Sequence record: PP886230 | Direction: 5' to 3' (one strand) | Source: Escherichia phage vB_EcoM_E9.1 | DNA: 64,000 nt | Notes under the pieces: generated by a model | Told to the model about the DNA's origin: nothing | Databases searched by the model: none | Seen by the model: only the letters and a program-made list of their open reading frames with translations | Translations under genes and position numbers: made by a program | Shown: positions 54,680-59,471 of the stretch, piece by piece | Layout of the letters: each line of letters starts with the position of its first letter | How positions within the stretch are numbered: position 1 is the stretch's first letter

Positions 54680-54907
54680 ATGACAAATACTCTTAAGTAC
54701 TACCTCAATACTCTAAATGAACTAGAGTACGGGGAATTTCTCGCGGATAGTTCGTGGCTAATTGAGCTAAAAAATTATAATAGTCCAGGATGCACCCTTA
54801 TGATGAACAATGCAATTGATACCCTCATTGTGAGTATTTTACACAGCAACATCTGCGGGGATAGCAATAAACAATTATCAAAAATCTTAGTACTGCTATC
54901 TATATGA
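54680..54907 (+). CDS. array-S small protein (first member, divergent)
   Basis: ORF 75 aa; N-terminal YY..L motif; hydrophobic C-terminal tail. Confidence 0.5.
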   Translation: MTNTLKYYLNTLNELEYGEFLADSSWLIELKNYNSPGCTLMMNNAIDTLIVSILHSNICGDSNKQLSKILVLLSI

Positions 54908-55107
54908 ATATCGAACAGTACTACATCGATGCACTACCAACAAAAGGTCTACGTGAAAGCCTACTGCATACACAAACTAATTTCAAACACCTCAAACGTA
55001 GCCCTAAACTCCTGAACTCGTACAGGAATAATAACATAAGAAATGCTTTACAAGGGGTAGAATGTATGCAATACTATTACATCCTTACCCTATTAATCGA
55101 GTACTAA
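54904..55107 (+). CDS. array-S small paralog
   Basis: ORF 67 aa; MNIEQYYIDALP..YYYILTLLIEY. Confidence 0.55.
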   Translation: MNIEQYYIDALPTKGLRESLLHTQTNFKHLKRSPKLLNSYRNNNIRNALQGVECMQYYYILTLLIEY

Positions 55108-55108
55108 T

Positions 55109-55318
55109 ATGAATACTGAACATAAAGAATTCTACACCAAATACCTTAGCAACGAAGAACAATTGTTTCTAAGGAGTGTATCACCTGTAAGTACCAATAC
55201 TCAATTCGGTAGAGATTGCTTTAATAATTGTATACGTAGTACTCTAGAAGCAATCGAATGCAATAACAAAAATATTATGTACTCAGGTTTAATAGGACTA
55301 ATATATTTCTATGAATAA
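55109..55318 (+). CDS. array-S small paralog
   Basis: ORF 69 aa; MNTEHKEFYTKYLS..GLIGLIYFYE; closest to ORF 58690. Confidence 0.6.
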   Translation: MNTEHKEFYTKYLSNEEQLFLRSVSPVSTNTQFGRDCFNNCIRSTLEAIECNNKNIMYSGLIGLIYFYE

Positions 55319-55505
55319 TCATAAAGATTTCTATTGTAGTAAACTACCCAAACAAGAACAGCTATCATTCTCTTTAGCACCACCTATGAGAAAGGATAAT
55401 CTGTATTATAATTACGATTTCAGGATGGTGACACGTTATGCAATAGAACATCAGTTCCCTGAAACTAAGTACCGCTCTATCCTGAACCTCATCTTTAAGT
55501 TCTAA
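55311..55505 (+). CDS. array-S small paralog
   Basis: ORF 64 aa; MNNHKDFYCSKLP..LNLIFKF. Confidence 0.55.
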   Translation: MNNHKDFYCSKLPKQEQLSFSLAPPMRKDNLYYNYDFRMVTRYAIEHQFPETKYRSILNLIFKF

Positions 55506-55557
55506 AAGGTACACCAGGGACCGAGTACTTTAATATAGTAAGGCTAATTACATTATA

Positions 55558-55743
55558 ATGAATCATATAAGCTACTACTACCAACAACTATCCGACAGAG
55601 ACAAGTACAGTCACAACTCCCATGTGTGGTACTACAAACGCGGCAGTATAAGAGACAAACAACATTACTTCTGTATTTCTATTAAAGAAGCACTGACAAC
55701 TAAGTACACGTACCGAGCAGTACTTAAACTTATTGAAATGTAA
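55558..55743 (+). CDS. array-S small paralog
   Basis: ORF 61 aa; ..KYTYRAVLKLIEM. Confidence 0.55.
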   Translation: MNHISYYYQQLSDRDKYSHNSHVWYYKRGSIRDKQHYFCISIKEALTTKYTYRAVLKLIEM

Positions 55744-55753
55744 AGAGAATACT

Positions 55754-55936
55754 ATGAACATTGAATTGTACTTAAGTAAATTACAGCCTGGCGATAGATT
55801 CATCTACAATAAGTTCGAATTCAACTACAAGAACGGGAGCAACAAATATCGTCGAGGATACCTATATACAAGCACAAGAGATGCACAAAACGAAAAGTAC
55901 ACATACAGAGAAGTACTTAAACTAATCTCTATTTGA
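55754..55936 (+). CDS. array-S small paralog
   Basis: ~60 aa from MNIELYLSKL; ..EKYTYREVLKLISI. Confidence 0.55.
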   Translation: MNIELYLSKLQPGDRFIYNKFEFNYKNGSNKYRRGYLYTSTRDAQNEKYTYREVLKLISI

Positions 55937-55944
55937 GGTAATAT

Positions 55945-56130
55945 ATGAATACATTTGAGTACTATACCAATAAACTATCTATGCCTGAAAGATCTCATCT
56001 CTATGTGTGGAGAAATGCGTATAAAAGCGGCAATAAACTTATACAAAGAAATTCCCTTACAGTGTGTACAAATTTAATTAAAGCAGAGTACCGCACATAT
56101 ATTGAAGTACTCAAACTGATAGCAATATAA
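55945..56130 (+). CDS. array-S small paralog
   Basis: ORF 61 aa; MNTFEYYTNKLS..YIEVLKLIAI. Confidence 0.6.
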   Translation: MNTFEYYTNKLSMPERSHLYVWRNAYKSGNKLIQRNSLTVCTNLIKAEYRTYIEVLKLIAI

Positions 56131-56138
56131 GGTACTCT

Positions 56139-56318
56139 ATGCAAGAATTCTATATCTATAACCTCCAGCACAAAGATAGATACAACTATAATAAATTCCA
56201 AAGGTACTACACAGTCGGGAACAAAAGAGATAAAAAACGTTATCTACTCTCGTGTACAGTAGAAGCACAAAACGAAAAGTACACGTACAGAGAAGTACTT
56301 AAACTAATCTCAATCTAA
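56139..56318 (+). CDS. array-S small paralog (59 aa, missed by the ORF track)
   Basis: MQEFYIYNLQ..EKYTYREVLKLISI; C-terminal 14 aa identical to ORF 55754. Confidence 0.55.
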   Translation: MQEFYIYNLQHKDRYNYNKFQRYYTVGNKRDKKRYLLSCTVEAQNEKYTYREVLKLISI

Positions 56319-56325
56319 GGTAGAC

Positions 56326-56514
56326 ATGAACACTTTTGAGTACTACTTCAATAAACTAAACCACATAGAACAAAGTATGCACCACACATTTATTCAGAAC
56401 CATCAATCATCTTCACCTCTAATTAAAAACATATCGATTGAGATTATCACTACCCGTGTACAGTCATCTGAACGTTATATGTATATTGATGTACTGAAAC
56501 TCATCTCTATGTAA
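56326..56514 (+). CDS. array-S small paralog
   Basis: ORF 62 aa; MNTFEYYFNKLN..YIDVLKLISM. Confidence 0.6.
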   Translation: MNTFEYYFNKLNHIEQSMHHTFIQNHQSSSPLIKNISIEIITTRVQSSERYMYIDVLKLISM

Positions 56515-56522
56515 GGAATACT

Positions 56523-57928: not shown

Positions 57929-57929
57929 T

Positions 57930-58112
57930 ATGCACAAAGAATACTACACACAATTTCTCCCCAGCATTTTTGAACACTACGCCAGATACAAAGTCCCTAT
58001 GGATAACGATTTGGCAGTACTGGGATTCAATAACTGCATAGAACGAAGTATAGAAAATAGTAGTAGTTATGACCAGCTATATAACACTATCCTACTTATA
58101 TTCAGGTACTAA
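57930..58112 (+). CDS. array-S small paralog
   Basis: ORF 60 aa; MHKEYYTQFLP..ILLIFRY. Confidence 0.6.
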   Translation: MHKEYYTQFLPSIFEHYARYKVPMDNDLAVLGFNNCIERSIENSSSYDQLYNTILLIFRY

Positions 58113-58113
58113 T

Positions 58114-58302
58114 ATGCATAAAGAATACTACACAAAATATTTCCCAATGTACCTCAGTACTAATCTATTAGATAAACCTCGCGGTATCAATGCACAAAAC
58201 GATAAAGTGTACTTTACTATGTGCACTAAAGCATGTATACTAGATTTTGACAGCTATCATCGAGTACTGTATCATACCCTGTACCTAGCTTTCGTATTCT
58301 AA
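58114..58302 (+). CDS. array-S small paralog
   Basis: ~62 aa from MHKEYYTKYFPMYL (TAATATG junction); ..YLAFVF. Confidence 0.55.
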   Translation: MHKEYYTKYFPMYLSTNLLDKPRGINAQNDKVYFTMCTKACILDFDSYHRVLYHTLYLAFVF

Positions 58303-58311
58303 AAGAACAAT

Positions 58312-58497
58312 ATGCATAAAGAATTCTACTTAAGCCATCTCGATCTAAACTCCCAAATGCTTATACCACTAATCCCAATAGATATCAAGGATAAGAAAAA
58401 TACCGAACAATTCATTTACCATACACAGTGTGCGATCACCCCAAATTACATTCCATATGAATTGTACTACATTATCGCCCTAATATATAGGTACTAA
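58312..58497 (+). CDS. array-S small paralog
   Basis: ORF 61 aa; MHKEFYLSHL..IIALIYRY. Confidence 0.6.
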   Translation: MHKEFYLSHLDLNSQMLIPLIPIDIKDKKNTEQFIYHTQCAITPNYIPYELYYIIALIYRY

Positions 58498-58498
58498 T

Positions 58499-58684
58499 AT
58501 GCATAGAGAATACTACACACAATTTGTTAAAGGGAACTACAAATGTGCCGTACCCAGAACCCCTTTAAATTCTCATGACCCAAGTACTATATTCTTGTTT
58601 AATGACGCAATACGTACAGTACTCAATACTAAAGATGAAGATGTGCAGTACGTATTCTTACTATTACTTATATACAGACACTAA
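58499..58684 (+). CDS. array-S small paralog
   Basis: ORF 61 aa; MHREYYTQFV..LLLLIYRH. Confidence 0.6.
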   Translation: MHREYYTQFVKGNYKCAVPRTPLNSHDPSTIFLFNDAIRTVLNTKDEDVQYVFLLLLIYRH

Positions 58685-58689
58685 CTAAT

Positions 58690-58899
58690 ATGAATAAAGA
58701 ACATAAAGAATTCTACTCCAAATACATAAGCCCCTCAGAACAAATGTTTCTAAGGACTACTCCACCTTTAAGTACTAATACATTTTTCGGCAGAGTATGC
58801 TACAATAATTGTATTCAAATGACTTTAAACGCAAATGAAGATGGTAACAGTACTAACCTGTACTCCGGCATCATAGGTATACTATTCCTGTATGAATAA
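58690..58899 (+). CDS. array-S small paralog
   Basis: ORF 69 aa; MNKEHKEFYSKYIS..GIIGILFLYE. Confidence 0.6.
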   Translation: MNKEHKEFYSKYISPSEQMFLRTTPPLSTNTFFGRVCYNNCIQMTLNANEDGNSTNLYSGIIGILFLYE

Positions 58900-59080
58900 T
58901 TACAAAGACTTCTATTTGAATACACTACCTACTGTACTTTCTCTAAGTGCTCAATGTAAAATCCCCCTGGATAATGCTTACGCCAGATATAGCTATTCCA
59001 TAACTGTTAATCGATGTATAGAGAATCATTGCAGTACTAACCAGTACTATAACATAATCCTACTTATATTCAGGTACTAA
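58892..59080 (+). CDS. array-S small paralog
   Basis: ORF 62 aa; MNNYKDFYLNTLP..IILLIFRY. Confidence 0.6.
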   Translation: MNNYKDFYLNTLPTVLSLSAQCKIPLDNAYARYSYSITVNRCIENHCSTNQYYNIILLIFRY

Positions 59081-59081
59081 T

Positions 59082-59264
59082 ATGAATAAAGAACATAAAG
59101 AATTCTATATACGAAAACTAACATTCGTCCCCGTAAGAATATATAAAGAATGCGACCCAAGATTATACCTATGGCACTTCAATGAGTGCATAAAAGATTC
59201 TATATACCATAAGAACTATAAAGAACAATTGTGCTCAGTACTAACACTAGTACTATCATATTAA
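59082..59264 (+). CDS. array-S small paralog
   Basis: ORF 60 aa; MNKEHKEFYIRKL..LTLVLSY. Confidence 0.55.
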   Translation: MNKEHKEFYIRKLTFVPVRIYKECDPRLYLWHFNECIKDSIYHKNYKEQLCSVLTLVLSY

Positions 59265-59279
59265 TTAATAGAGAATACT

Positions 59280-59471
59280 ATGTATAAAAACTTCTATATA
59301 AGTAAACTAAAAGAAAATGAACAAGTATGGATTAGATCTATAATTCCACTGGCATTTAATAGATATGCATTTAACAGATGTACCGAGATTGCTATAGACC
59401 CTTATAATATTAAAGAGAATGTACAGTATAATCAGTACTACTATATCTTAATGCTTATATATAGAAAGTAA
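59280..59471 (+). CDS. array-S small paralog (last member)
   Basis: ORF 63 aa; MYKNFYISKL..YYILMLIYRK. Confidence 0.55.
   Translation: MYKNFYISKLKENEQVWIRSIIPLAFNRYAFNRCTEIAIDPYNIKENVQYNQYYYILMLIYRK

Follow-up and report, generated by a model that had tools for sequence, protein, structure and literature searches.

Tandem expansion of a family of small, predicted helical proteins in the jumbo phage vB_EcoM_E9.1 and other members of Asteriusvirus

Most genes of jumbo phages are without known function, and how genomes of this kind grow is an open question. A 64,000-nucleotide stretch of the genome of Escherichia phage vB_EcoM_E9.1 (sequence record PP886230; the whole stretch is referred to below as the window) poses this question in compact form. 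Between positions 54680 and 59471 lies an uninterrupted run of small genes, which a preliminary description based on the letters of the sequence had taken for a tandem array of about 21 diverged copies of one tiny protein, expressed from one promoter and serving as a diversified set of effectors. What are these genes, how does such an array arise, and why would a phage keep so many versions of the same protein? The results presented here support the array genes as real, diverged paralogs, given the hidden Markov model (HMM) and hhalign matches among them, a ratio of nonsynonymous to synonymous substitution (dN/dS) below 1, and a confidently predicted common fold. As to what they do, the explanation that we favor, tentatively and at slightly less than an even chance, is that they form an early-expressed, rapidly diversifying multigene family of non-virion proteins that interact with the host, in takeover of the cell or in countering its defenses.

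The array comprises 22 consecutive, abutting genes on the plus strand (m01 to m22), of which 21 are small open reading frames (ORFs) of 59 to 75 amino acids; the remaining one, m11 (56713..57372), encodes the 219-residue protein already recognized among the small ORFs in the preliminary description. Coding density is 97%, with only about 146 nt of the 4,792 nt being non-coding, and nothing comparable is found on the opposite strand in the ORF listing. The three genes previously reported to fall under a 60-residue cut-off are m08 (56139..56318), m10 (56523..56702), and m13 (57549..57728), each encoding 59 residues. The tight packing is borne out as well: intergenic gaps range from -8 to +15 nt, the sole exception being the 52 nt between m04 and m05, with the expected TAAT-ATG junction at seven boundaries and an overlap at four others, either as ATGA (-4) or of 8 nt. 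Gene starts and ends agree with the GenBank annotation of phage SHEFM2K, and the record of phage 121Q annotates the same ORFs, labelled "hypothetical protein" in both.

Apart from the repetitive look of the region, nothing speaks for an artifact, either one long structural repeat gene mis-split by frameshifts, as the preliminary description had allowed, or by sequencing errors, or a series of chance ORFs in AT-rich DNA, and we regard the probability of this as practically nil. Every unit starts with an ATG, ends with a TAA, and is served by a separate ribosome-binding site, the units occupy different frames, and the same organization is found, with the family ORFs intact, in 11 independently sequenced phages as well as in metagenome contigs, so that the conservation of every stop and start already refutes a mis-split gene. 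Chance ORFs are excluded because a 60-codon open stretch has a probability of only ~0.01 in this DNA of 34% GC. No pseudogenized copy was seen, except in the low-quality CMSTMSU assembly. For orthologous pairs, pooled dN/dS (Nei-Gojobori) is 0.29 against phage A4, 0.43 against WPEC5, and 0.44 against 121Q, indicating that the array genes are under purifying selection, although not a strong one.

To what extent are these genes one family? When an HMM built from the array members was used to search all six-frame ORFs of 35 to 400 amino acids in the window, it recovered exactly 20 adjacent small ORFs and nothing else; the proposed count of about 21 paralogs thus stands for 20 of the 21 small ORFs and not for the first, m01. 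As the members are adjacent, on the same strand, and of a homology supported by both the HMM and hhalign, the run is a tandem multigene family. The paralogs are highly diverged, with a median pairwise identity of 26% and a maximum of 59% (m03 and m19). They fall into two classes, to which the two flavors of C-terminal tail noted earlier correspond. Class A, with the tail VLKLISI, consists of six basic members: m05 (55558..55743; 61 residues, isoelectric point [pI] 9.4), m06 (55754..55936; 60 residues, pI 9.6), m07 (55945..56130; 61 residues), m08 (55% identical to m06), m09 (56326..56514; 62 residues), and m10. The 14 members of class B, ending in LLIFRY or a variant of it, lie on both sides of this block. 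Ahead of it are m02 (54904..55107; 67 residues), the start of which overlaps the stop of m01 as ATGA, m03 (55109..55318; 69 residues), and m04 (55311..55505; 64 residues), which overlaps m03 by 8 nt. Behind m11 follow m12 (57365..57547; 60 residues, overlapping m11 by 8 nt), m13, m14 (57737..57928; 63 residues), m15 (57930..58112; 60 residues), m16 (58114..58302; 62 residues), m17 (58312..58497; 61 residues), m18 (58499..58684; 61 residues), m19 (58690..58899; 69 residues, a duplicate of m03), m20 (58892..59080; 62 residues, overlapping m19 by 8 nt), m21 (59082..59264; 60 residues), and the final gene of the array, m22 (59280..59471; 63 residues).

The profiles of the two classes align collinearly from end to end (hhalign probability 88.8%, P = 2.5e-6), sharing the anchors E-Y-Y...L, C-T...A, and Y...VL.LI. 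When the HMM of one class was searched against sequences of the other, the best real score (15.5 bits) only equaled that of the best shuffled decoy (15.3 bits). The classes are therefore distant, and the case for their homology is made by the profile-profile alignment and the collinear motifs. Among existing protein families, PHROG 11711 is matched over the full length by six class B members (E-values of 1e-25 to 1.5e-6), whereas neither m01 nor the tested class A members found a match in the PHROG search; in the SHEFM2K record, eight array genes carry the PHROG 11711 tag and no class A gene carries any PHROG tag. Membership in PHROG 11711 thus holds for class B only, and the PHROG, to which no functional annotation is attached, does not capture the array as a unit.

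The two genes outside the family differ in character. The leader m01 (54680..54907), the opening gene of every array, encodes an acidic protein of 75 residues. Although its ends resemble those of the family (LKYYLNTL and ILVLLSI), neither the family HMM nor hhalign (probability under 3%) recognizes it as a member; it appears to be a separate gene that may be a very remote relative of the family. The 219-residue protein m11 (PHROG 29152) was considered as a possible fusion of family units and rejected, having no match to the family HMM. It is strongly basic, with a net charge of +10 and a KKRNKKKKSR stretch. Its AlphaFold model, built with 20 orthologs, was unusable (predicted local distance difference test [pLDDT] 36), profile searches against PDB sequences were empty, and Pfam gave a single, below-threshold match (Pre-PUA_NSUN2, E = 0.012).

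Structure prediction, proposed in the preliminary description as a way of examining the family, points to a confident small helical bundle. An AlphaFold2 model of m14, based on a 40-sequence family alignment, is compact (pLDDT 92.4, predicted template modeling score 0.77) and contains helices at residues 3-10, 14-17, 30-45, and 49-62. In a weighted conservation profile computed over 162 distinct members, the conserved positions are Y7, Y8 (invariant), L12, Q17, P24, F36, C39/T40, L44, Y53, I56, L57, L59, I60, and Y63, and variability is near maximal in the loop at 13-35 and on alternate faces of helices 3 and 4; judged by the model, it is the core-type hydrophobic residues that are fixed and the loop and outer helix faces that vary. 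The model and this profile together indicate that the hydrophobic C-terminal tail, the presence of which is upheld here, is the last core helix of the bundle and not an anchor. A membrane span or tail anchor was ruled out, as the tail has neither the length nor the hydrophobicity for one (19-residue Kyte-Doolittle means peak at 1.18 overall and do not exceed 1.06 in family members) and is modeled as a packed helix. Members contain between zero and three cysteines, of which only the C39 position is conserved (54%), and the conservation profile and cysteine counts reveal no paired CxxC or CxxH metal ligands in the family. Class A proteins carry a net charge of +2.6 to +5.6 on about 60 residues (pI 9.2-9.6), with the exception of the nearly neutral m09, whereas class B proteins are mostly neutral or acidic. 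Searches of Pfam, PADLOC, and PDB sequences with the family were empty, and a Foldseek search of the m14 model against the PDB returned nothing significant.

The arrangement of signals around and between the genes supports the earlier suggestion of expression from one promoter. A sigma-70-type promoter-like site on the plus strand (54626..54654; TTGACA-17 nt-TACTAT, with CAGTACTG in the spacer) lies 25 nt before the start of m01, in a 103-bp divergent intergenic region that can be aligned across seven phages. Every one of them, the divergent phage JNE01 included, retains TTGACA, the spacer, and the -10 element (TACAAT in JNE01), as well as the Shine-Dalgarno sequence of m01 (AAGGAG; 54666..54671, plus strand). 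Within the array there are no plus-strand terminator-like sites, the first one downstream being a weak hairpin at 59746..59765 (plus strand). Most starts are preceded at 4 to 6 nt by a Shine-Dalgarno motif (AGGT or AAGG). The class A junction reads TAAGGTAnnnATG; at class B junctions, the sequence is AGG-TAC-TAA-T-ATG, the terminal Arg-Tyr being always encoded by AGG-TAC, so that these codons double as the Shine-Dalgarno sequence of the next gene (AGGT, 6 nt before the ATG). AGG is a rare arginine codon in E. coli, which fits such a role. Since the class B tail codons encode the next ribosome-binding site and the gene junctions are the best-conserved DNA of the array (repeat families D2, D3, D6, and D9), part of the stereotyped protein termini reflects a constraint at the level of RNA. 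Taken together, these features support a single, translationally coupled operon behind one conserved, putative sigma-70-type promoter.

The type of this promoter also suggests when the array may be expressed. In phage CBB, RpoD-like promoters were predicted ahead of short, presumably early genes and an ATAAATA motif ahead of structural genes (PMC5259590), and in the record of Cronobacter phage GAP32, TTGACA(N15-17)TATAAT promoters are annotated in the small-gene region. The RCC1-like genes adjoining the array in the window, which run in the opposite direction, are mostly preceded by a hairpin (GCCAGTACTTGATACTGGC and a T-run) and a -10-only cassette (AAATATAGTATAATGAATAAAGGAGG). By analogy of promoter consensus, we infer that the array is expressed early.

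The family appears confined to a single phage genus. A megablast search of positions 54000-60000 and 40000-54000 against a phage collection matched 36 records. All are from jumbo myoviruses infecting E. coli or Salmonella, which have genome sizes of ~310-386 kb and belong to the 121Q/PBECO4/phAPEC6 group (genus Asteriusvirus); the closest relative, SHEFM2K, is 99.2% identical over the whole query. A word-indexed profile search of 5.8 billion proteins yielded 37 proteins, and an exhaustive HMMER search of 1.84 billion cluster representatives yielded 36 clusters, 35 of 49-69 residues and one a 41-residue fragment. Divergent clusters trace to the JNE01/Turkey5 lineage of Asteriusvirus, as also indicated by tblastn with divergent members, and others to metagenome contigs with the same array, including the central protein of ~220 residues. 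Neither HMMER, for the clusters traced, nor tblastn found a member outside arrays of the Asteriusvirus type, and the syntenic region of GAP32, which belongs to another genus of the same clade, contains none.

Comparison across related phages, which the preliminary description had recommended, reveals a common frame in all 11 arrays: the leader, a first block of two to four class B genes, a block of two to six class A genes, the gene for the 219-residue protein, and a second block of eight to 13 class B genes. In all of them m11 separates the A block from the second B block, and the one exception to the frame is a class B gene within the A block of JNE01. Family members total between 14 (Salmonella phage SD-15_S21 and JNE01) and 22 (BAU.Micro_ELP-22). 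Duplication has involved two-gene units, m06-m07 being matched by m08-m09 and m03-m04 by m19-m20, and some copies are chimeric: P0005 combines the N-terminal half of m12 with the C-terminal half of m14, and P0002 the body of m14 with the tail of m16. Copy-number variation between close relatives together with chimeric copies characterizes the locus as a gene accordion. A systematic screen for chimeras found a single clear half-and-half recombinant; shuffling is therefore real but not rampant.

Divergence is concentrated within the array. Relative to JNE01, four small downstream genes have 93-100% protein identity, a 203-residue gene 90%, and the ORF-free stretch that follows the array 88% DNA identity over 97% of its extent. 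Protein identity is no higher than 58% for array members, 38% for the 219-residue protein, and 27% for m01; of the array DNA, just 18% is alignable. Because the flanks are conserved and the members diverge, the array is a hypervariable island between conserved flanks; the RCC1 array is also one, to a lesser degree. Such a pattern is as expected of host-interaction genes. As a separate observation, the m14 ortholog of SHEFM2K (6738-6941 of its locus) carries an in-frame duplication of four codons near the N terminus (MNNHKEYYIEYYIEKL, compared to MNNHIEYYIEKL in the window), a small slippage event in a conserved motif.

The early, cytoplasmic, and host-directed role proposed above is the most economical reading of the promoter type, the absence from virions, and the hypervariability beside conserved DNA. 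Under this reading, a conserved host-type (sigma-70) promoter would drive one long mRNA early in infection, from which the 22 genes would be translated in series, coupled by stop-start overlaps or by Shine-Dalgarno sequences lying within the final codons of the gene before. The twenty orphan paralogs of ~60 residues would each fold into a small, soluble four-helix bundle with a fixed hydrophobic core (Y7, Y8, L12, F36, C39/T40, L44, Y53, I56, L57, L59, and I60) and a variable loop at 13-35. The family would have arisen, and would continue to change, through tandem duplication of one- and two-gene units and in-register unequal recombination at the conserved gene junctions. The outcome might be a cytoplasmic, non-virion repertoire in which each member binds a different target of the host or its defenses via its variable surface; that each member is matched to a particular host variant, as the preliminary description had it, is speculation. 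A stronger version of the idea, in which the array is a repertoire of binders on one minimal four-helix scaffold, diversified in its loop and helix faces, expanded or shuffled as an accordion at the conserved junctions, and co-expressed early against many targets at once, strikes us as rather unlikely. If it held, the array would be for bacterial viruses what multigene families for immune evasion are for large DNA viruses of eukaryotes, with the same junction serving as protein termini, ribosome-binding site, and recombination substrate.

The absence from virions comes from the published virion proteome of phAPEC6, which contains the RCC1 proteins gp549 and gp551 and none of gp540c-548c. Several considerations temper the host-directed reading. 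This absence is weak evidence, given the small size of the proteins and an annotation of phAPEC6 that covers only about half of the array genes, and early timing rests on promoter consensus, the searched literature holding no transcriptome or infected-cell proteome for the genus. The diverged paralogs on which the proposed effector set was based hold good, and the block is a hypervariable island, but no sequence or fold match to a known effector, an anti-defense protein, or any other characterized protein emerged from Pfam, PADLOC, or the PDB. The paralogs within a genome are old, as their median identity implies, many members are kept as orthologs across most genomes, and turnover in the main lineage is not extreme. 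Fast divergence at a dN/dS of 0.3-0.44 would also fit a simple relaxation of constraint, and the strongly basic class A proteins and 219-residue protein would be equally suited to binding nucleic acids. With regard to annotation, the phAPEC6 record includes eight of 18 small array genes and that of CMSTMSU only a few, so that proteomic data from virions or cells would miss most members when matched against either record.

Nucleic-acid binding is the rival that comes closest, although we still consider it unlikely. It would make the members regulators or chromatin-like proteins acting on the DNA or RNA of phage or host, the paralogs being a set of specific factors, and it draws on the charge of class A (m09 excepted), the basic and invariably central 219-residue protein, the precedent of another jumbo phage, in which small, putatively DNA-binding proteins have expanded as paralogs (PMC7824862), and the ORF-free, promoter-rich, repeat-rich stretch adjoining the array. 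Set against this are the mostly neutral or acidic class B, a single conserved cysteine with no helix-turn-helix, zinc-ribbon, or other DNA-binding signature, and fold searches that gave no DNA-binding match. That the array is dispensable filler seems improbable to us. Here, duplications would persist under weak constraint because a head-full capsid tolerates extra DNA, the copies having no specific role, in line with the ratchet idea of Hua et al. 2017 (PMC5646251). Freely varying copy number and the relatively high dN/dS are what this would lead one to expect; yet dN/dS is distinctly lower than 1, the copies in 11 genomes have retained reading frames, starts, coupling signals, and the residues that define the fold despite the low identity of the paralogs, the promoter and the order of leader, B, A, 219-residue gene, and B survive even in JNE01, and pseudogenized copies are missing from all but the poor assembly mentioned above.

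T4 internal proteins I to III are packaged in the capsid and ejected with the DNA, and the T4 peptide that targets them is MKTYQEFIAE. The family's N-terminal motif is loosely similar to this peptide, and an M-x-K-E-Y-Y-x-x-L sequence conserved ahead of a variable body, a hyperplastic locus, and neighboring RCC1-like proteins that are virion components would all suit an arrangement in which the N terminus targets the capsid and the body is an anti-restriction effector. The analogy does not hold up, however, and we rate it as quite improbable: the N-terminal segment forms helix 1 of the confident model, with Y8 an invariant core residue; there is neither a conserved (L/I)-x-E cleavage motif nor a conserved Glu at positions 9-12; the promoter is of the sigma-70 type, unlike those of the neighboring virion genes; and the annotated members are missing from the phAPEC6 virion proteome, in which a protein as small as 4.7 kDa was detected. 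Finally, the units of ~60 residues might stack into a hetero-oligomer in the manner of separately encoded HEAT- or ARM-type repeats, with coupling providing equal amounts of each. Tight translational coupling suits stoichiometric production, and duplication in two-gene units is compatible with it, but 14 to 22 copies of varying membership in close relatives are hard to square with a fixed assembly, and we find this account very improbable.

The array can be placed among the lineage-specific expansions of tandem paralogs or the early small-gene clusters of jumbo phages. What sets it apart is the size of the expansion, the coupling of the genes in one operon, and an orphan fold. In Bacillus jumbo phage G, a lineage-specific zinc-ribbon expansion of ~35 copies has been proposed to encode transcription factors or DNA-binding proteins (Iyer et al. 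2021, PMC7824862). There as here, a very small protein has been amplified to tens of copies in a jumbo phage, but the family of the array is predicted to be all-helical, with no zinc ribbon. Hua et al. 2017 noted tandem arrays in phages G and 121Q and, as is done here, interpreted them as products of tandem duplication, in a single sentence without coordinates, family definition, or analysis. That sentence may refer to the small-gene and RCC1 arrays together, since their 20-21 and 12 genes in the window add up to ~32. In the literature searched, no paper analyzes the small-gene family, and arrays in general receive one sentence each in Hua et al. 2017 and in the phAPEC6 paper, neither of which defines the family. 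The early regions of Rak2-, GAP32-, and CBB-type phages contain short hypothetical genes behind RpoD-like promoters, presumed to function in host takeover (Buttimer et al. 2017, PMC5259590). The array adjoins such a region and resembles it in phage clade, promoter type, and small genes on one strand; those regions, however, hold mostly unrelated genes split by promoters and terminators, in contrast to 20 paralogs in one coupled operon.

T4 internal proteins and the hyperplastic regions of T-even phages likewise involve small genes that lie beside virion genes, evolve fast, differ from strain to strain, and encode a conserved N-terminal motif. The array differs in that the N terminus lies in the folded core of the model and is not cleavable, and in that the products were not seen in phAPEC6 virions. 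Tandem blocks of paralogs, unequal recombination, fast evolution, and a link to host interaction are also features of the MGF360/505 families of African swine fever virus and the K3L accordion of poxviruses, which involve much larger proteins with demonstrated roles in immune evasion; the units of the array are of 60 residues and polycistronic.

The locus offers a clean and tractable case of a lineage-restricted orphan fold, present in 14 to 22 copies in one coupled operon and outpacing its flanks. If the members are host-directed binders, the array would be an example of phages adapting to their hosts through multigene-family accordions, in the way that poxviruses and African swine fever virus do, and a source of natural mini-proteins against E. 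coli targets. Dispensability of the members would instead favor the view that genomes inflate through a capsid ratchet. In both cases, many of the array genes are missed by annotation pipelines, and the PHROGs split the family.

Several features of the surrounding DNA deserve mention. Directly after the array, positions 59472-61411 form ~2 kb without a credible ORF, left unannotated in 121Q as well. Sigma-70 consensus promoters occur here on both strands, one at 60110-60137 matching at 12 of 12 positions and two, at 61109-61082 and 60768-60740, at 11 of 12. The stretch also contains 12 copies of CAGTACTG; 40 nt at 61262-61301 recur as a perfect direct repeat at 61315-61354, and short repeats resembling iterons lie at 60460-60640 (GGATTTTGGGCGTAG and GACGGCTAAACGGCTAGA). 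It is far better conserved relative to JNE01 than the array. It could be a control region or an origin. It includes a candidate small non-coding RNA on the plus strand (60144-60310): downstream of the promoter at 60110-60137, which matches the consensus perfectly, ~165 nt are free of ORFs, and this segment closes with a 14-bp hairpin (60267-60300) and a T-run. The predicted fold energy is -50.6 kcal/mol (z = -4.9), which none of 200 shuffles reached, and the structure is kept in eight phages, with compensatory changes at five pairs; an Rfam scan of 54-64 kb found no family there or elsewhere in that interval.

The palindrome AGTACT is the commonest hexamer in the window, with 227 copies compared to 22 expected under an order-1 and 45 under an order-2 Markov model, and CAGTACTG is the commonest octamer, with 51 copies compared to ~1 expected. 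Coding copies fall in each of the three codon phases, others lie in non-coding DNA, and the signal is noted in the loci of related phages as well. The density of copies is two to three times higher in the small-gene region, densest at 54000-64000, than elsewhere (~7/kb and ~3/kb), and the 3' half of m11 (57078-57325) holds the densest coding cluster of the window, four CAGTACTG copies in 250 nt. A subset forms promoters of the type TTGACA-N9-CAGTACTG-TATAAT, at 16714, 31357, and 60124. As the same excess is present in GAP32, of a different genus (6.9/kb in the first 14 kb and 2.1/kb in a structural region), it is a clade-wide DNA signal; the literature search found no paper that mentions it.

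On the other side of the array, positions 40462-54576 are occupied by a second tandem array, on the minus strand, of ~12 RCC1-like paralogs (beta-propeller, PHROG 4219), two orthologs of which are the virion proteins of phAPEC6 named above. Most of these genes are preceded by the same cassette, composed of a terminator hairpin, a -10-only promoter, and AAAGGAGG, and the array varies between phages, only 53% of it being alignable to JNE01. At the left end of the window (174-2071) are tRNA genes for Met-CAT, Asn-GTT, and Thr-TGT.

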